From a virus (Duplodnaviria; Caudoviricetes): a stretch of DNA of 64,000 nt. This document shows, piece by piece, positions 5,027-59,078 of the stretch. The DNA lies in IMG/VR virus record IMGVR_UViG_3300037067_007633, positions 64,001-128,000 of that record. One strand, 5' to 3'. How positions within the stretch are numbered: position 1 is the stretch's first letter; the number at the start of each line of letters is the position of its first letter. The position numbers were made by a program, and so were the translations under genes. The notes beneath the pieces were generated by a model. It saw only the letters and a program-made list of their open reading frames with translations. It was not told where the DNA came from and did not search any database.

Positions 5027-5833
5027 ATGAATCATATAAAGAAAGTTTTTAAAACTAAAATTGATGACAAAGAAGTAGAATTAGCTGTAAAAAGTCCAGA
5101 CAGAGGAATTGCACAGGAAGCACAATTTCATTTTGGAAAAGTGTTTTCGCAAGCATTAAAAAATGGTGCTATTCTTAAAACTCGTCTTGAAGATTATATG
5201 AAAGAACAAGGTGTTTGGAATAAAGAAAAACAAAAAGTATTAGATAAATGTAATAGAGATATTTCTGACGGATCGTTAAAATTACAAAGAGGCGGAATTA
5301 AATTAAGTGAAGCTAAAAAAATAGCTCTTGAAATTCGTGACGCAAGAAATAAGCGTTTAGAAGTTTTATCTGAAAGAATGGTGTTAGAAGCAAATACTGC
5401 TGAAGGTCAAGCAACTAACTCAAGATTTAACTTTATGGTATCTAAATGTTTGGTGTATAATGATTCTGGAAACCCTGTTTTTAAAGATTTTGACGAGTTT
5501 TTAGAACATATTACTGATGATTGTGTTGTTAAAGCATGTGAATTATTATCTTCTATTCTTTGGAATTTAGATGAAAATTTTGATAGAGATTTACCAGAAA
5601 ATAAATTTTTATTAGAATGGAAATTTATTGATAGTGAATTACGACTAATTAATAAAGATGGTCATTTAGTAGATTATGATGGTCGCCTTATTAATAAAGA
5701 CGGAAGATTTGTTAATGAAAAAGAAGAACTAATAGATATTAATGGGAATTTAATAACCGAAGAAGGTAATTTAGTTATAGATAGTAAGCCATTTTTAGAT
5801 GATGATGGGAAACCAATAAAATCATCTAAATAA
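5027..5833 (+). CDS. putative tail assembly chaperone with C-terminal 7-residue repeats
   Basis: 268 aa, last gene before tape measure; C-terminus INKDGHL/VDYDGRL/INKDGRF/IDINGNL/ITEEGNL. Confidence 0.5.
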   Translation: MNHIKKVFKTKIDDKEVELAVKSPDRGIAQEAQFHFGKVFSQALKNGAILKTRLEDYMKEQGVWNKEKQKVLDKCNRDISDGSLKLQRGGIKLSEAKKIALEIRDARNKRLEVLSERMVLEANTAEGQATNSRFNFMVSKCLVYNDSGNPVFKDFDEFLEHITDDCVVKACELLSSILWNLDENFDRDLPENKFLLEWKFIDSELRLINKDGHLVDYDGRLINKDGRFVNEKEELIDINGNLITEEGNLVIDSKPFLDDDGKPIKSSK

Positions 5834-21512: not shown

Positions 21513-21517
21513 AAGAT

Positions 21518-21526
21518 GGTGTATAT
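21518..21526 (+). promoter_or_regulatory. candidate late promoter motif GGTGTATAT
   Basis: Identical 9-mer to 2408, in the gap before a gene with strong AGGAG SD. Confidence 0.5.
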
Positions 21527-51747: not shown

Positions 51748-52245
51748 TTATTCCTTAAAAGTGTAAGTTTGAAAACATAAGTCGAACATCTCATAAACAC
51801 CCTTTTCTTTAGCTTGTTTTTTTAATTTTTTCAAATCTATATTATTATCTTTTAAATATTCGTGGATTAAAAATTCTAAAGATTCTTTTTTGCCTCCTTC
51901 TTCTTTTGTTAATTGTGTTAATTTAGCAACTTGCTCAAAAAACGTATCAAAATCAACATCTTTGTTTTTATACATCCACACAATAAAATTTGGATTATAA
52001 TATCTTATAAGACATTGTTTCATTATATATAGAAACAAAAATTCTTTTATAGCATAATTTTCTACAAAATACTCAATATCATTTATAATAACTTTTGAAT
52101 TATAAATAGTGATTTTGATTGTTGTTTGTTGTAATTTTGGATATTCTAATTTCTCTGGTAGTTGTAATTCTACAGTATTGTGTTTTATTGTTGCTATAAT
52201 TAAATATTCGTGCTCAATCAATAATTTTTTTATATTTGAAAACAT
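51748..52245 (-). CDS. hypothetical protein
   Basis: 165-aa ORF overlapping the dnaE C-part stop. Confidence 0.55.
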   Translation of the reverse strand: MFSNIKKLLIEHEYLIIATIKHNTVELQLPEKLEYPKLQQTTIKITIYNSKVIINDIEYFVENYAIKEFLFLYIMKQCLIRYYNPNFIVWMYKNKDVDFDTFFEQVAKLTQLTKEEGGKKESLEFLIHEYLKDNNIDLKKLKKQAKEKGVYEMFDLCFQTYTFKE

Positions 52246-53828
52246 TGTTTAATGATATATCCTTGTCTTCCTCTTGCTTTTTCTAATTGAATTAACGCCG
52301 TGTTTCCTGGATATAAAATAGCCTTCATTTCAACCCATTGGTTTGGAAAACATATAATATTCTCTATTGCTGATGTTCCGTCTGATATTACTAAAAACGC
52401 CATTTTTTGTCCATTTTTTGTTGTTATTTCTCTGGCGGCAAAAATCTCCACAGCAACTACAATATATCCACTTTTCCCATCCACTACTTCTTTACATGTA
52501 CAAGTAGCTGATATTGAATTATTGCACCCATCAACTTTACTGCATGATATTGGGGCTCCTAAATATTCTTTCTCTGTCCACGAAATCCAATCTGGAGTAT
52601 CATTTAGTAAATGTGGGGGGTTGTTAAGTGAAGAGACAAAAGACAACAGTTTCTCTTTACGCTTTATTATACAACCATTTTCAGAACAGTCAAGTATAGA
52701 ATCTTTTAAATTTTTATCTTTGTGTTCTTGAATATATTTTTTCTCTTTTGGTGTTAATTTATTCCAAATATCAAACTCAAAGAGCATGATATTACGATTT
52801 AACAAGAAATAATCTAAAGCCCCAGATGAAATAAATGCGGTGTTTGGTCTAGACCCAATATTATCACTAAAGAATATTAAATAATCTAGCCATACCCAAT
52901 CCTTTATTTTCTTCCCTATTAATATTTCCGCTTTAATTCGTGCTTCTATTATTTTATTTAAAGAAGATTCTCCAACATTTTTAAGATTTGAAATTCCAAA
53001 TCTAATATATTTATTATCAACTATATGAATATTAAGTTTTTCAGATCTAAAATCTGGAACCATAACACTAATATCTTGTTGTTTAGCGTCTGTTACTAAT
53101 TCAAATATTTCCTCGTGTGGTTTTTGTTTGGATTTGGCAAATTGTAAATAGGAACAGTAAAATTGTAGGGGAAAATGGGCTTTACAATAGGCGGAATAAT
53201 AGGCGTCGATTGCATAACAAACGGCGTGACTTTTATTGAAGCTGTAACGCTGACTTTCTTGTATCCATCCAAATATTTCTTCAGCTTTTTTATCATCAAC
53301 AATTCCTGTCTTTTTACATCCTTCTAAAAATTCAATCTTAACTTTTGCCATTACTTCTGGTAGCTTTTTTCCAATAGCTTTTCTGAGTGAATCCCCCTGT
53401 TCGAGGGAGAAGCCGGCAATCTCTTTAGCAATTAAAATGGCGTTCTCTTGATACACCATGATCTGATATGTATCTTTAAGAATAACATCTAAAGATGGAT
53501 GTAAAGATTCAACTTTTTCAATACCATTTTTTCTATCACAATATCTAGCAGTCATGCTTTTAGGTGGACTACCAGAGAGGGATTTCAAACACCCCGGACG
53601 GAGGATACTAACTAAAGCTGCTAGGTGTTCTATGTTCTCTGGCTTCAACTTATTTGCCCACACTTTTCCTAATGGACTTTCAAGTTGGAAAACTCCCTTT
53701 GTTCTTCCGCTTGATAATAAATCCCATGTCTTTTTACATGTAAGTGGAATATTATCAAAATCCAATAGAATATGACCCTTTTCATCTAATTGAAATTCAC
53801 AACCACAATCTAATAACTTTGTTGTCAT
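52230..53828 (-). CDS. dnaE: DNA polymerase III alpha subunit, C-terminal part (fingers/HhH/OB)
   Basis: TKGVFQLES, RPG, VYQE, LRKAIGKK, YSFNKSHAVCY, IRFGISNLKNVG, TKNGQKMAFL. Confidence 0.92.
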   Translation of the reverse strand: MTTKLLDCGCEFQLDEKGHILLDFDNIPLTCKKTWDLLSSGRTKGVFQLESPLGKVWANKLKPENIEHLAALVSILRPGCLKSLSGSPPKSMTARYCDRKNGIEKVESLHPSLDVILKDTYQIMVYQENAILIAKEIAGFSLEQGDSLRKAIGKKLPEVMAKVKIEFLEGCKKTGIVDDKKAEEIFGWIQESQRYSFNKSHAVCYAIDAYYSAYCKAHFPLQFYCSYLQFAKSKQKPHEEIFELVTDAKQQDISVMVPDFRSEKLNIHIVDNKYIRFGISNLKNVGESSLNKIIEARIKAEILIGKKIKDWVWLDYLIFFSDNIGSRPNTAFISSGALDYFLLNRNIMLFEFDIWNKLTPKEKKYIQEHKDKNLKDSILDCSENGCIIKRKEKLLSFVSSLNNPPHLLNDTPDWISWTEKEYLGAPISCSKVDGCNNSISATCTCKEVVDGKSGYIVVAVEIFAAREITTKNGQKMAFLVISDGTSAIENIICFPNQWVEMKAILYPGNTALIQLEKARGRQGYIIKQCFQI

Positions 53829-54094
53829 ATTATTTTAGTCAATTCAATTAAACATTGTTTGCATATATGTGTTCCAGTTTCATCATTTAGAAGCAAACAC
53901 GGTTTTATTATATTTTTAAAAAATTCTTGATAAATTCTACTATATTCCTTATATTTTTCTTCTGTATAATCACCGACCCAATCGTTTTTGGTATAAATAT
54001 GAGAAACAAGTTTGTTGAATTCTTTAGTGTATTTTGGATCATAACAAAAATCACAAATATCGTCTTCTACAATCAAATCATTTTTTATATTCAT
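53825..54094 (-). CDS. zinc-binding hypothetical protein
   Basis: CDFC...HICKQC. Confidence 0.55.
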   Translation of the reverse strand: MNIKNDLIVEDDICDFCYDPKYTKEFNKLVSHIYTKNDWVGDYTEEKYKEYSRIYQEFFKNIIKPCLLLNDETGTHICKQCLIELTKII

Positions 54095-54318
54095 ATTTTC
54101 AAATATCCTAAATTAATAAGGATTTTAATTCCAGTAGGAGTTATAAAATTCCATCCATTTACTTGTTTGACATATCGACATTTTACCAAATTGTTTCTTG
54201 CGGACTTTGAGATTAAATTTCCATCCCATGTGACTTTAGTTAATTGTATTAATTGTTCTATGTTATTTTTTAATATATATTCTGCTACTATTTGGTTTGC
54301 TAACTTTTTATTATCCAT
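54091..54318 (-). CDS. hypothetical protein, possible winged helix
   Basis: LVKCRYV...FITPTG pattern. Confidence 0.5.
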   Translation of the reverse strand: MDNKKLANQIVAEYILKNNIEQLIQLTKVTWDGNLISKSARNNLVKCRYVKQVNGWNFITPTGIKILINLGYLKI

Positions 54319-54322
54319 TATA

Positions 54323-54574
54323 TTATTCCTTCCATTCTAAAGATGTTTTTCCGGTTTTGCTATCTACTACGTAATGCATAACATCATTATTAACCAAAAA
54401 ATTATTAAAACCATGCATATCTGCCATTACAATAAAAAGAAACATTGTACAACACAAAAGAATTAAAGTAATAAATATTGAGAAACGAATTTTGTCATTA
54501 AAATATAAGCTGAGTAATGTTAAGTGAATTAAAAATAGAGACGTAATAGCAATACTCGCACATAACAAAGTCAT
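54323..54574 (-). CDS. small two-TM membrane protein
   Basis: Two hydrophobic helices. Confidence 0.55.
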   Translation of the reverse strand: MTLLCASIAITSLFLIHLTLLSLYFNDKIRFSIFITLILLCCTMFLFIVMADMHGFNNFLVNNDVMHYVVDSKTGKTSLEWKE

Positions 54575-55254
54575 TATTTTTCCTCCTTATTTCGTAGACA
54601 ATTTTTAAATTGTAATCTTGCAGTTCCAGTTTCTTCTCGTGTTTTTGTGAGATACCTTGATGCTGTAAATAGTTTTACTAACATTTGATGACACATTTTA
54701 CAATCAAAAAGTGCATCGTGTGAATTTTCTAGGGTCGCTGTACTCATTCCCATATATTCTAATACTATAGATAATTTTAATTTAGGTAATTCTGGATTAT
54801 TTTCATTCCAATATAACATTAAATAATAAAGATCAAAGAAATTTACTTGATTAAATAATTTTTGTCTACCAGATTTAGCATCCCAAGGTCCAAATCTTTC
54901 ACAGAACCTAGAAATTATAGGTAAATCAAACCCTAAAATATTATATCCAGACATTATTGGAGCAGTATATGTGGAATTACCACGATTATATTTCCCAACC
55001 CAAGCACAAAATTGTTGAAAAACAAGTTTGATATCAGGAGCATTGTCTAATATTTCATGATTAAGTTTATTTACAGCTAACGCTCCAGGTTCAACAGTGT
55101 CCCAATTTTCTGGTTTTATGTAAGAACAAAACCCATCTTTGATTTCTAAAGTTCTAGGATCTAACATTAAACCAGCTATCTGTAAAATTTGTGCTGTTGA
55201 AATGCTAGCACTCGAAGTTTCAATATCCACAATGCAAATATGATTGTAATTCAC
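54574..55254 (-). CDS. DEDDh 3'-5' exonuclease (DnaQ-like)
   Basis: VDIETS, GYNILGFD, SHDALFD. Confidence 0.88.
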   Translation of the reverse strand: MNYNHICIVDIETSSASISTAQILQIAGLMLDPRTLEIKDGFCSYIKPENWDTVEPGALAVNKLNHEILDNAPDIKLVFQQFCAWVGKYNRGNSTYTAPIMSGYNILGFDLPIISRFCERFGPWDAKSGRQKLFNQVNFFDLYYLMLYWNENNPELPKLKLSIVLEYMGMSTATLENSHDALFDCKMCHQMLVKLFTASRYLTKTREETGTARLQFKNCLRNKEEK

Positions 55255-55460
55255 TTTTGATCTCCATTGTTTAATTTATCCATAGCGTCTGCAATTCTAC
55301 GAAGTTGTTCAGAAGTAAAATATCCATCTAAACACGATATAGTTTTGTCTAATGAAAAATATTGTTGTTCTCTAATATCAGATAATTCTTCATTTAATTC
55401 TATATTATTTTCCATTTTGATTTCCTTATTCATAATTGTTAACCAATCTACAAACTTCAT
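55251..55460 (-). CDS. hypothetical protein
   Basis: Short ORF; real start probably ATG 55433. Confidence 0.5.
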   Translation of the reverse strand: MKFVDWLTIMNKEIKMENNIELNEELSDIREQQYFSLDKTISCLDGYFTSEQLRRIADAMDKLNNGDQK

Positions 55461-57311
55461 GTAATTTATCTAGTAATGATATACCAAGTATATCCAATTT
55501 TATTACTCCAAGTGCCTCCAAATCTTTAAATTCCATATCACATATTAAAGATTCGGTTCCCTTATCATAAGCCATAGGACAAAGTTCGTTTAACGGAATG
55601 TGAGAGATAGCTATTCCAGAAGCATGGCGGCTTTTATTACGTCTCGTTCCTTCTAAACGTATTGATTGGGAAAACTTTTTACACAAAGGTCCATCAAGTT
55701 CCCCATCTTCTCTAATAAAACACCATTGTTTTAATTCTTCTTTATGATTTTCTAGTGCCCATTGCACTATCGAGGCATCACCAGTTTCTTCACGCATTTC
55801 TTGTAATTGATCAATTATTTCAGCTTCGTCTGGAATATATTGACTTATTAAGTTCATTTCTTCAAACGATATTCCGCCATGTACCCTTAGCACATCTTTG
55901 ATCGTTGAACGCCCTTGCATTCTACTAAACGTACTAATCTGTGCTACCTTATCTTTTCCAAACTTTTCTTTAATATAAGAAATAATATTATCTCTAAAGT
56001 CTGATTCAAAATCCATATCAATATCAGGTAAAGATATATTATCTTTTGTATTTCTTCCTTTATTGTAAAATCTTGAAAATAGTAAATTGTATTGTAATGG
56101 ATCAGCTTTTGTAATACCAAGCAAATATAGTATTAATGATCCCCCAGCACTTCCACGCCCTACTCCAGTTAATTTATTATTTCTTCTTACATAGTTAATA
56201 ATATCATAAACAATAAGAAAATAATCTTCTAATCCAACCTCTTTTAATATTTGGTATTCCTCATTAAATCTATCAACATATTCTTTAATAGGAATTCCAG
56301 TAGACTCAATTTTACTTTTAAGTTTTTTCCAACCCTCCCTACATAGTTTTCTTAAATACTCAATAGAAGAGGAACCATCGGGGGTAATATATTTGGGTAA
56401 TTGGGGTTGGTTGGTAATGTCATATTCCTCACAAAGTTCGGAAATTTTAACAGTGTTATCTAATTCCTCTTTGGTGTGAATTAGTTGCATTTCTTCGTTA
56501 GAAGGAATATGGTAAGAATCAGATATAAAAAATTGTTTTAACGCAATATCTTCCCCATTTAATTGTTTTTTCTGCAATTCTTGAAAAGTTGTTTGTAAAC
56601 TAGAACATAAAACCACCCTTTGATCTTCCGCATCTTCCCTACGGCAATAATGGGCATCTGGAGTAGCCACAAGTGGTATATTATATTTCCTCCCAATTCC
56701 CCTCATTATTTCCGCTATCTGTTTTGCTTTTGGATTCTTATCTTGGTCAATTAATTGGACTTCAAGGAAAAAGTTTTCCTTTCCAAATGTGTCCCACAAA
56801 TCATTAATAAGAGATAGGCAATTAAGTTCGTAAGCATCCTTTAAAGTGTCATCATCGTTGAAAATCCTGGAAGTAAATAGGGAACCTAAATGTCCGCAAA
56901 TAGCTATGATATTTCCCCTATTAATTTTCGCTATTTCCACTAGATTTAATCTTGGCTTATAATAGAAGTTTTCCGGCTTATTTGACGTGCTAACAATCTT
57001 TATTAAATCTTTCCAACCCTCTTTATTCTTCGCAAGAAGAACAATGTGTTGAAGTTTACGTTGTTGTTTTAACTTAGGATCTTCCTCACAACAATACGCT
57101 TCAATTCCCAAGATGGGTTTTATCTTAGCTTTTTTCATTTCCTTGAAGAAACTTACAGCACCAGAAATATTTCCATGGTCTGTTATGGCACACGAGGTCA
57201 TTCCTAATTCTTTACAGCGTTTTGCAATATCTTTAGGTTTAGATATGCCATCCAACAAACTATAGGTAGTCCACACCACCCTTAAGTATGGACGTGAGTG
57301 GGTATATACAA
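55426..57311 (-). CDS. dnaE: DNA polymerase III alpha subunit, N-terminal part (PHP plus palm); inferred 622 aa across a 17-nt gap at 57268-57284
   Basis: YSLLDG, TDHG, GIE, DAHY, GRGSAGGS, PDIDMD, RHASG, KLDILG; the missing MYIPTHVHT is encoded from TTG 57311 in another frame. Confidence 0.9.
57268..57293 (-). other. candidate translational bypass element (17-nt coding gap plus hairpin)
   Basis: Minus strand GTC CAT ACT | TAA GGGTGGTGTGG ACT | ACC TAT AGT; matched ACT codons; stem GUCCAUAC/GUGUGGAC. Confidence 0.7.
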
Positions 57312-57313
57312 TG

Positions 57314-57326
57314 ATTTATTCTCTAC
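57314..57326. repeat. 13-bp direct repeat, copy 1 (ATTTATTCTCTAC)
   Basis: Exact match to 58442-58454. Confidence 0.9.
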
Positions 57327-58393
57327 GTCCATAATTTTAGGTGGTCCTCCTTTCCAGCTACTAATGCTGCTAAAAATTTATAATATTGCATATCTAAATT
57401 TTTCCTTGATTGATTGACAGTTTTATGAACCCATTGTAGATTGTTTTCAACATATTCTAAATTATTATCTATGCGATCTAATGATGCTGTATTTATACAT
57501 TTTATATATTCTTGAGAATTGTTTGGTAATATAATTTTTTGTCCTGTTATAGCACAACACCCATTTTGTTTTATAAATAATTCTAAAGCATATTCTTTAT
57601 CAATTTCAAAATTAATTTTCCGTTTTTTAGCATTATATATAATATCTTTCCAAAAACTTTTATATATAATTAAATTATTGGTGTTAACACTATTTTGTTC
57701 TATTAGCGGATTTTGTATTAATTTACATAAATTGATAAAATCTTTTATTGATAATGAAGCTTTTATTTTGTTTATATCTTTATGTAACCACTGAACATTA
57801 TCTAAAGAATATCCTAAAGAACTATCTTTTCTATCTAATGAAGCTGTTTTAAAATTTTGTTCTAATGATATTGGTAAATCACTTAAAGCACATTCATTAT
57901 TTTGTTTTTCAAATAAATCCCAAGCTTCCTTTATAGTAATATTAAAATTTATATTTCTATTTTTAGCACAACATTTTATACTAGACCATAAATTTCCACT
58001 TATACCACCGTGCCCCTTCCATAAATGATTTTCTATGCCGTATTTATATGTACATTTACCACAAGATTTTACATTACCATTTTTTAATAAAGATACATGA
58101 ACATTTCTTTTTTTGCCACATTCACATTCACACTCCCAAATTGTTGTACCATTTTTACTTTTACCAACTTTTTTTATTACAGTAAGTTTATTAAATTTTT
58201 GTCCAGCGACATCTAAAGCAGAACCAAAATCTATTCTAGGTATATTATATTTATCTATGTAATTATATATAGTGTGTACAGTAGCACCAACCATTTTAGC
58301 AATATAATATGGTCCCTTTTTATTTTTAGTATATTCTTCTTCTAAAAATTCTTTAGTTAATATTTTATCAAACTTCATTTGATTAATCTCCAT
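57323..58393 (-). CDS. HNH-like homing endonuclease with HTH, zinc module and two tandem nuclease domains
   Basis: WECECECG...VKSCGKC; two copies of KQN..CA...TASLDR.D....Y...N.QW.HK..N; probable start ATG 58378 with GGAG SD. Confidence 0.8.
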   Translation of the reverse strand: MEINQMKFDKILTKEFLEEEYTKNKKGPYYIAKMVGATVHTIYNYIDKYNIPRIDFGSALDVAGQKFNKLTVIKKVGKSKNGTTIWECECECGKKRNVHVSLLKNGNVKSCGKCTYKYGIENHLWKGHGGISGNLWSSIKCCAKNRNINFNITIKEAWDLFEKQNNECALSDLPISLEQNFKTASLDRKDSSLGYSLDNVQWLHKDINKIKASLSIKDFINLCKLIQNPLIEQNSVNTNNLIIYKSFWKDIIYNAKKRKINFEIDKEYALELFIKQNGCCAITGQKIILPNNSQEYIKCINTASLDRIDNNLEYVENNLQWVHKTVNQSRKNLDMQYYKFLAALVAGKEDHLKLWT

Positions 58394-58416
58394 GATAATG
58401 TAATGGTAATATTTAC

Positions 58417-58425
58417 ATATACACC
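58417..58425 (-). promoter_or_regulatory. candidate late promoter motif GGTGTATAT upstream of the endonuclease gene
   Basis: Identical to the motif at 2408 and 21518, oriented toward the endonuclease. Confidence 0.5.
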
Positions 58426-58441
58426 ACTACATTGGCATATA

Positions 58442-58454
58442 ATTTATTCTCTAC
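58442..58454. repeat. 13-bp direct repeat, copy 2
   Basis: Exact match to 57314-57326. Confidence 0.9.
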
Positions 58455-58629
58455 AAAAATTAACTAACTTTTCAAAATCCCAAAATACTTCTGACCAACA
58501 ATCAGAAAAATTTTCCGTACATACTTCTTCCCACCAATACTTTTCTTTACAGTTTGGGCATTCTCCATATTCCCATTCTTTAGCTTCAAATTCCGTATTA
58601 CAAAAAGGGCATATAATATCTATCATCAT
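58444..58629 (-). CDS. small zinc-ribbon protein
   Basis: CPFC and CPNC. Confidence 0.65.
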   Translation of the reverse strand: MMIDIICPFCNTEFEAKEWEYGECPNCKEKYWWEEVCTENFSDCWSEVFWDFEKLVNFCRE

Positions 58630-59078
58630 ATTTTAATATATTTAGTATTTGGTTTTATATTTTTGTCGAAGACAACTATTGCTGATGGAAAAGGAGCGGG
58701 AACTTTTGATTGGGAAAATTTTAATCTCCCCTTAATAAATCTAATTTCCCCCTTAATACAATATTCGTGCCACCATTTAGTATCTACTCTAGCGGGAATT
58801 AGAAATACACAGACGGTTCCTTTTAGAGATTCTTTATATCCTTTTTGTATAAACTTCCCTATTAATCTTCCATATGGAGGATTACAAAATACTACTTTAT
58901 ATTTTGACCAATCTTGAATTAATGAGTTATCATCTTTGGTGTAAAAATTATCACATAAGTTGTTCTCTGTGGTTGCGGCTGCATCTAATTCAAAGCAAAA
59001 TTCCGCGTGTAATATGTCAAAAATATGTGGTGGAGTTTCCCATTCATTTGATTTAGAACTTAATAATGAATTATTCAT
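58626..59078 (-). CDS. phage N6-adenine DNA methyltransferase
   Basis: EWETP, LDAAA, FCNPPY, LIPARVDTKWW, GRLKF, APFPS. Confidence 0.9.
   Translation of the reverse strand: MNNSLLSSKSNEWETPPHIFDILHAEFCFELDAAATTENNLCDNFYTKDDNSLIQDWSKYKVVFCNPPYGRLIGKFIQKGYKESLKGTVCVFLIPARVDTKWWHEYCIKGEIRFIKGRLKFSQSKVPAPFPSAIVVFDKNIKPNTKYIKI

Follow-up and report, generated by a model that had tools for sequence, protein, structure and literature searches.

To our knowledge, efficient programmed bypassing is so far represented by T4 gene 60 with its homologues, which are all topoisomerase genes and form the single well-studied case, and by the yeast mitochondrial byps. Short stop-hops in E. coli reporter constructs were reportedly described by Weiss, Gesteland and Atkins in the late 1980s, and candidate bypassing is said to have been reported in Streptomyces phages. 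Free-standing phage endonucleases are known for intron-less homing, for instance T4 MobE at nrdA/nrdB, SegG and others. In the T4 MobA element, an N-terminal extension overlaps the endonuclease open reading frame (ORF), and the target is replaced by a homologous region; the bypass is situated at the 3′ end, and frequently persists after loss of the endonuclease (Manning and Atkins, bioRxiv 10.1101/2022.08.31.505936). According to the same authors, who cite work on MobA nicking, the 50-nt insert splits the site of MobA (bioRxiv 10.1101/2022.08.31.505936). Here we describe a coding gap near the 5′ end of a phage dnaE gene that adjoins a free-standing homing-endonuclease-like gene. It lies in a stretch of 64,000 nucleotides, called the window below, which corresponds to bases 64001-128000 of the 160-kb IMG/VR virus record IMGVR_UViG_3300037067_007633 (Caudoviricetes). 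Coordinates are given in window numbering, and all genes around the gap site are on the minus strand.

We consider it probable, though by no means certain, that an endonuclease cassette once inserted in the 5′ end of this dnaE and that ribosomes hop over a gap of 17 nt. The gap is preceded by a replacement dnaE start, which joins a cassette-specific N-terminal extension to a copy of the conserved Y-I-P-x-H-V-H-T start and overlaps the endonuclease ORF by 10 nt, out of frame. When nucleotides 57284..57268 are skipped, the product reads ...HVHT-TYSLLDG. The corresponding spacing H-x-H-[ST]-x-[YF]-S-L-L-D-G is invariant in 39 homologous and 67 further ungapped loci (106 in all). The original prediction had placed the dnaE start at a TTG (57311-57309); the conserved ATG at 57332-57330 is the more likely candidate. 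The distances given at that time were accurate, as the endonuclease stop lies 11 nt before the TTG and 38 nt, instead of about 40 nt, before the TAA of the gap.

The locus resembles T4 gene 60 and MobA in many respects. In both cases a free-standing endonuclease gene is inserted in an essential replication gene. The cassette supplies a new start for the downstream part, in a frame different from that of the endonuclease ORF with which it overlaps, and repeats the displaced target codons ahead of the gap. Both have a stop directly after the take-off codon, matching take-off and landing triplets, one hairpin 5′ of the take-off site and another starting at the stop. Moreover, the endonuclease is often lost and the gap kept, and some relatives have the cassette without a gap. 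The differences are equally clear. The target is dnaE, at the H-x-H motif of its PHP domain, and not the topoisomerase II large-subunit gene. The gap comprises 17 nt here and 7-12 nt in relatives compared to 50 nt in T4, and take-off occurs after only 14-16 codons, so that no long nascent-peptide signal is possible. The start codon is located within the 5′ hairpin, and the upstream fragment of the target is a useless stub of 12 codons rather than a functional subunit. Finally, the endonuclease belongs to a different family without detectable Pfam HNH similarity. To judge from these features, the cassette works like a MobA element and is not a member of the MobA element family. With homing of the MobE and SegG type it shares a sporadic gene between conserved genes, the use of the same hotspots in related phages and conversion tracts that carry flanking markers, but those elements leave the reading frame without an untranslated gap. 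As in the short stop-hops, the peptidyl-tRNA would leave the codon before a stop and re-pair with a matching triplet a few bases downstream. Those events are of low efficiency or are candidates, whereas the predicted hop would be required for an essential polymerase and has dedicated hairpins that are kept with compensatory changes. A full-text search of the literature found no paper describing bypassing in dnaE.

The wider proposal is more tentative, and we would put its chances somewhat below even. It holds that phage dnaE genes contain a natural series of bypass cassettes, in which a stop, a matching landing triplet and two small hairpins alone support highly efficient hops of 7-17 nt after 14-16 codons, and in which the gap splits the endonuclease site and renders its carriers immune. 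If true, the problem that T4 gene 60 solves would have been solved a second time, independently and in a much simpler way, and dozens of natural variants would be available for mechanistic work. A second family would make the combination of endonuclease and bypass a recurrent route by which selfish DNA enters an essential gene at its most conserved part and leaves the gene functional.

The gap is not peculiar to the window. In a search of 5.8 billion proteins, the closest polymerase was P0002 (73% identity), which as called in the database begins at an internal Met. Its contig, L195, is a Logan assembly from an independent run and reads CAC GTC CAT ACT TAG, followed by 14 nt ending in ACT and then by ACG CAT TCG CTT CTT GAT. 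Its gap thus measures 17 nt at the same codon as in the window, with ACT both as take-off and as landing triplet and a stop directly after take-off. Seven of the 17 gap bases differ between the two phages, and the 12 nt ahead of the gap are identical. Because L195 stems from an independent dataset and has a gap of the same length at the same codon, the gap in the window is evidently no assembly error and appears to be older than the window's phage. In L195 a TAA stands in the downstream frame immediately ahead of the landing triplet, and none of the 44 conserved codons after the gap is ATG, GTG or TTG. Thus, neither frameshifting nor re-initiation can reach these codons. That they are translated is indicated by 11 synonymous versus only 5 non-synonymous codon changes between window and L195.

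More distant relatives extend the series. Three ENA/Logan contigs read TCT TAG GTGGGCT ATG, 11 of 78 related IMG/VR loci are gapped (7-11 nt), and a pattern scan added 62 gapped loci. In all three sets, gaps of 7-12 nt follow H-V-H-S and always open with TAA or TAG. Their common layout consists of a Shine-Dalgarno sequence, ATGGACGTG, 21 nt, CACGTCCAT, a Ser (or Thr) take-off codon, TAA/TAG, the short gap and x-[YF]-S-L-L-D-G. Altogether, 27 distinct gap variants with lengths of 7, 8, 9, 10, 11, 12 and 17 nt represent all three frame classes. The last triplet of the gap is identical or synonymous to the take-off codon in 22 of them, and a stop blocks the path of frameshifting or read-through in nine, L195 included. 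The window belongs to the most divergent clade in the data, characterized by take-off at Thr, a gap of 17 nt, a 5′ loop of greater length and an intact endonuclease with two domains. Since gene callers cannot cross the gap, many homologues of 52-56% identity have been called from MYSLLDG or with odd N-termini, and annotation pipelines miss the metal-binding H-x-H motif of these truncated polymerases. Public dnaE entries with a MYSLLDG start or a spurious N-terminus include P0010, P0015, P0017, P0023, P0026 and others.

Predicted conserved mRNA hairpins flank the take-off site. In the 5′ hairpin of the family, the H-V-H codons CACGTCCAT are the reverse complement of ATGGACGTG, which covers the first three codons, including the start codon. 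The window likewise has its start codon in one arm and the H-V-H codons in the other. In an alignment of 42 distinct sequences (alignment A2), 98% of the cells of this hairpin were paired compared to 31-56% in slid controls. One pair is GC in 30, AU in 9 and GU in 3 sequences, and the remaining changes are G-U wobbles. Conserved ahead of the take-off site are M-D-V... and Y-[IV]-P-L-H-V-H, a conservation that could reflect either RNA pairing or a polymerase motif. The 3′ hairpin of the family begins at the stop codon, where the first part of the gap pairs with the Y-S-L codons. Its arms covary (GTGA/TCAC, GAGA/TCTC, ACGA/TCGT, GCGA/TCGC), and native pairings of arms had a mean minimum free energy of −5.9 kcal/mol, chimeric ones of −3.1 kcal/mol. 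For the whole element in relatives, folding z-scores ranged from −3.3 to −6. With their compensatory hairpin changes, the 27 gap variants found in nature amount to a ready mutational series for the requirements of take-off, slide and landing. As a separate observation, the 3′ hairpin of the window (57264-57281, minus strand) is followed by AUAGUUUGUU and was flagged as terminator-like, and UUUUGG follows the hairpin in relatives; transcription may be attenuated to some degree at the gap. The idea that the two hairpins form a transcription attenuator fails, as L195 has no start codon after its 3′ hairpin.

A hop of the peptidyl-tRNA from take-off codon to landing triplet is most likely the one mechanism that covers all variants. 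We prefer it because the gaps occur in all three frames, open with a stop, mostly have matched triplets and lie between two covarying hairpins. In the window, ribosomes would translate 16 codons up to ACU and arrive with UAA in the A site. The hairpin starting just past the stop would hinder termination, as a hairpin at the stop does in gene 60 (Agirrezabala et al. 2017, PMC5462505). The peptidyl-tRNA(Thr) would then release ACU and the mRNA would slide by 17 nt, a forward movement that the 5′ hairpin might favour by re-forming behind the ribosome, by analogy with gene 60 work. Manning and Atkins (bioRxiv 10.1101/2022.08.31.505936) give a list of gene 60 cassette features. Finally, the tRNA would re-pair with the second ACU and translation would resume at ACC, yielding a single DnaE N-half with an intact H-x-H motif.

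Comparison of the related loci supports the original prediction of a composite unit of the MobA/gene 60 type that unites the endonuclease gene with the gapped start of dnaE. In L283, L292, L320, L309 and L325, an endonuclease homologue of about 240 codons adjoins the gapped start, and in all five its ORF spans the Shine-Dalgarno sequence and ATG of that start, as in the window. The contig of P0027 probably has a 238-aa endonuclease beside a gapped start as well. In L287, all but the last ~100 nt of the endonuclease gene is gone. From this remnant to about 30 nt past the landing site, L287 differs from L292 at 1 of 176 positions. A tract of 99% identity between polymerase genes whose bodies are only 70-76% identical points to recent transfer of exactly the endonuclease end and the gapped start. 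L195 lacks an endonuclease at this place and retains a homologue of the last ~30 nt of the window's endonuclease ORF. Compared with one another, these loci show endonuclease and gapped start descending together and the endonuclease being lost stepwise.

Further evidence comes from truncated original dnaE starts upstream of the endonuclease, namely MKNYIPLHVHAH* in L325, MKNYIPLHAHSH* in L283 and MNTYFPLHVHSHY... in L242. All three end at the H-S-H-Y codons, the site of the gap downstream, from which we infer that dnaE was the insertion target and that its replacement start came with the cassette. Gapped alleles are scattered on the polymerase tree and require at least eight gains or losses. 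The region 58454..57264 (minus strand) of the window would accordingly represent a homing-endonuclease cassette made up of a promoter-like motif, the endonuclease gene and the overlapping replacement dnaE start, with the 17-nt gap at its 3′ joint. The endonuclease would cut gap-less dnaE near the H-S/H-Y codons, and the gap would protect its carrier by splitting the recognition site, as suggested by the insert in the site of MobA.

Several observations weigh against the combination of cassette and hop. At take-off the nascent chain measures only 16 residues and is far shorter than the gene 60 signal. The element of the window itself is weakly set apart from shuffles (z = −1.3), and the register of its 3′ hairpin differs from that of the main family. 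Five variants (29 loci) with take-off codon TCC or TCT have ACT or GCT as the last triplet of the gap, and re-pairing in these would use two of three bases. Most alleles with TCC take-off close the gap with ACT and one TCT class closes it with GCT, in place of a Ser triplet (L284, L289, L290, L280, L306, L287 and others); alternatively, one extra residue may be inserted in them. A gap-less close relative of the window's clade was not found, which leaves the window without a donor/recipient pair. The nuclease activity of the 356-aa protein is assumed from the behaviour and annotation of its family. The protein has no Pfam HNH match, its L292 homologue gave nothing usable in Pfam either, and the best Foldseek matches, PacI, a Cas9 HNH domain and the Gme HNH nickase, are weak (E 0.04-0.3). 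None of the His residues is invariant in 17 sequences (alignment A3), and the catalytic His expected at the end of the first strand is missing.

The association between endonuclease and gap across relatives, put forward in the original prediction, turned out to be loose. Overlapping pairs exist, but an adjacent endonuclease was found in 6 of the 56 gapped loci with enough upstream sequence and in 2 of 67 ungapped loci, a difference that is not significant (Fisher p = 0.14). Most gapped loci thus have no adjacent endonuclease, and L242 and L210 have an endonuclease and no gap, so a gap is not the sole way to live with the endonuclease. In these two loci (L242:2650-3530, L210:1-300) the replaced start encodes H-C-H (CAT/CAC TGT CAT), whereas all gapped starts have codons for H-V-H (GTC), and the truncated originals have codons for H-V-H or H-A-H. 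The H-C-H of ungapped carriers may be a second route to immunity, or GTC may simply be required by the 5′ hairpin.

The loose association would be expected if the gap were a real recoding signal and the endonuclease an unrelated neighbour placed there by chance. The family indeed lands throughout the replication module, also after the dnaE N-half (L195, L115, L210, L243, L300) and upstream of a PD-(D/E)XK gene (L282, L292, L328, L332, L336), and about 50 of the 56 gapped loci lack it next to the start. We nevertheless regard a chance neighbourhood as unlikely. An endonuclease that abuts a gapped start always runs through its Shine-Dalgarno sequence and ATG, the tract shared by L292 and L287 covers both the endonuclease end and the gap, and the truncated original starts place the insertion at the gap position.

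A smaller chance is left to termination followed by re-initiation, in which the 16-codon ORF would be a leader peptide, DnaE would begin at GTG 57279 or 57276 without H-x-H, and two products would result. The window gap does contain two in-frame GTG codons with a G-rich AAGGG before them, gene callers place the protein start there, and the L196 type has an ATG after its gap. However, most variants have no in-frame start codon, and L195 has no canonical one in its 44 conserved post-gap codons. Moreover, Y-[IV]-P-L-H-V-H-[ST] is kept in the leader of every lineage, which would be needless for a mere leader. Still more improbable is a −1 (or +2) frameshift at ACU-UAA, which would add five or six residues (LRVVW...) to the motif. 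The path is open in the window, but the same path meets a TAA in L195 and a slippery sequence is absent. The relatives would require +1 shifts, −1 shifts and read-through by turns, and the motif spacing is constant in the 106 ungapped homologues. That a single metagenomic record presents a broken gene or an assembly artefact is scarcely credible, given that L195 and some 65 further contigs, taken from many samples, have a homologous gap, that the 613-codon frame downstream is intact and belongs to the sole dnaE N-half of the 160-kb record, and that near-identical contigs of this phage occur in other samples, though none of these spans the gap.

Table 1. Features of the dnaE 5′ region in the window, arranged in the direction of transcription.
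Feature	Position	Strand	Remarks
Dam methylase gene	58626..59078	-	first in transcription order
Zinc-ribbon-like ORF, 61 aa	58444..58629	-	second in transcription order
Upstream 13-bp repeat copy, GTAGAGAATAAAT on minus strand	58442..58454	-	last codons and TAA of 61-aa ORF
TATATGCC AATGTAG, possible decayed original dnaE start (Y-I-P ... H-V)	58427..58441	-	putative
Promoter-like motif TGGTGTATATG	58416..58426	-	about 25 nt upstream of endonuclease start
Free-standing homing-endonuclease-like gene, 356 aa	57323..58393	-	third in transcription order; stop TAG 57325-57323
Shine-Dalgarno AAGGAGG of replacement dnaE start	57346..57352	-	within endonuclease ORF end; kept in L195 and all gapped relatives
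Replacement dnaE start, 16 codons (MDVENKS + LYIPTHVHT)	57285..57332	-	
5′ stem-loop	57288..57332	-	AUGGACGU (57332-57325) pairs with ACGUCCAU (57295-57288); from fold and covariation
Downstream 13-bp repeat copy	57314..57326	-	codons 3-7 of replacement start; contains endonuclease stop
Take-off codon ACT (Thr)	57285..57287	-	
17-nt coding gap	57268..57284	-	opens with stop TAA (57284-57282), closes with landing triplet ACT (57270-57268)
3′ stem-loop	57264..57281	-	GGGUGGU pairs with ACUACCU, loop GUGG; includes landing triplet and next codon
dnaE N-half ORF, PHP and Pol III alpha palm	55426..57279 as called	-	fourth in transcription order
Remainder of split DnaE N-half (PHP and palm/NTPase)	55426..57267	-	resumes at ACC after gap; from Pfam

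The direct repeat and the echo of the dnaE start, both part of the original prediction, are present as described (Table 1). ATTTATTCTCTAC occurs exactly twice in the window, 1128 bp apart, and TATATGCCA after the upstream copy resembles TATATACCC after the TTG. Dinucleotide shuffles of this AT-rich DNA produced a 13-bp direct repeat at some place within 1.4 kb in 26% of cases, and 417 such pairs exist in the window. A repeat placed no more than 70 nt from each of the two ORF ends was obtained in only 0.3% of shuffles, and the local alignment of the two flanks (15/16 nt) was matched by 2 of 1000 shuffles. The repeat is probably real and is weakly informative. It is best read as the remains of a duplicated target, in which the original copy would lie upstream of the endonuclease and the copy of the cassette downstream. 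L195, which is devoid of the 61-aa gene, agrees with the repeat in 11 of 13 bases at the corresponding position of its replacement start. Thus, the downstream copy predates the split of the two phages, and yet the two copies in the window are still identical. The pre-insertion allele obtained by collapsing the repeats is plausible rather than secure. A stop four bases before the TTG resembles the packed starts of ungapped relatives, but the downstream copy lies within a start region that the window has in common with L195. The objection that the collapse would delete the conserved ATG and Shine-Dalgarno sequence was dropped, as L195 can be read as an endonuclease-deleted cassette. A search for homologues of the 61-aa protein, aimed at the pre-insertion arrangement, returned only the window's phage itself (two other contigs, which end short of the gap).

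Between the upstream repeat copy and the endonuclease gene, the TATATGCC element sits where L325, L283 and L242 keep the truncated original start. The promoter-like motif recurs upstream of the endonuclease genes in L325, L283, L309 and L242. TGGTGTATA occurs three times in the window (5451-5459 and 21517-21525 on the plus strand, 58418-58426 on the minus strand; 0.7 expected) and may be a phage promoter element. On the plus strand, 58418-58453 reads YTPLHWHIIYSL, an inverted look-alike of an ungapped dnaE start, parts of which are shared with the promoter-like motif and with the upstream repeat copy. Its nucleotide similarity to the window's own gap-less sequence was reached in 253 of 1000 shuffles and is not above chance; the site may act as an operator for the endonuclease.

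The endonuclease gene is present in a single copy in the 160-kb genome. Its product matched PHROG endonuclease, endonuclease VII and HNH families (E 1e-31 to 1e-20) and had no match in a sequence search of the PDB; relatives in cultured phages are annotated as HNH endonucleases. An AlphaFold model built from a 17-sequence alignment is confident for residues 1-227 and comprises an N-terminal helix-turn-helix, a Cys-rich ribbon and a beta-beta-alpha unit (strands 184-188 and 200-204, helix 205-213). The invariant residues include D187, R188, N199, N208 and K211, of which the Asn positions fit, with a general base other than His. We therefore file the protein as a homing endonuclease by behaviour that is HNH-like only. 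Its nuclease-like domain occurs twice in tandem, at about residues 125-226 and 243-340, and the D-R-x-D, N, W and N positions are retained in each copy. With two domains the protein could cleave both strands, where the relatives of ~240 aa, which have one copy, would only nick.

The family is sporadic and can be present or absent at the dnaE start of otherwise collinear relatives. A second hotspot lies directly after the dnaE N-half (L195:2466-3149; L115:7023-7667; L210:2136-2807; L243:5526-6125; L300, ~2 kb downstream of the gapped start). In L195 the gap is present and the endonuclease gene follows the N-half instead of preceding it.

The cassette region had no blastn match in cultured phages and no match in Rfam at E ≤ 1. 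The dnaE N-half downstream of the gap matches PHP (PF02811, 8e-36) and DNA_pol3_alpha (PF07733, 3e-66). The dnaE gene of the window is split (52230-57332, minus strand) into the N-half with PHP and palm and a C-half with finger and HhH (52230-53828), which are separated by a 69-aa ORF and a DEDDh exonuclease gene (54574-55254). The order of N-half, ~64-aa ORF, exonuclease, C-half and SSB is kept in distant relatives. Other interruptions of dnaE were encountered among the relatives. The C-half in L195:4397-7338 apparently harbours an intein with a LAGLIDADG endonuclease, to judge from weak or faint Pfam matches on three consecutive called genes. In L002:1743-4001 (47% identical) the N-half is interrupted. 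A 455-aa ORF ends with ...FLKFIGA, and a 296-aa ORF that begins one base later encodes about 70 unrelated residues and then the conserved S-L-P-D-I-D-M-D.

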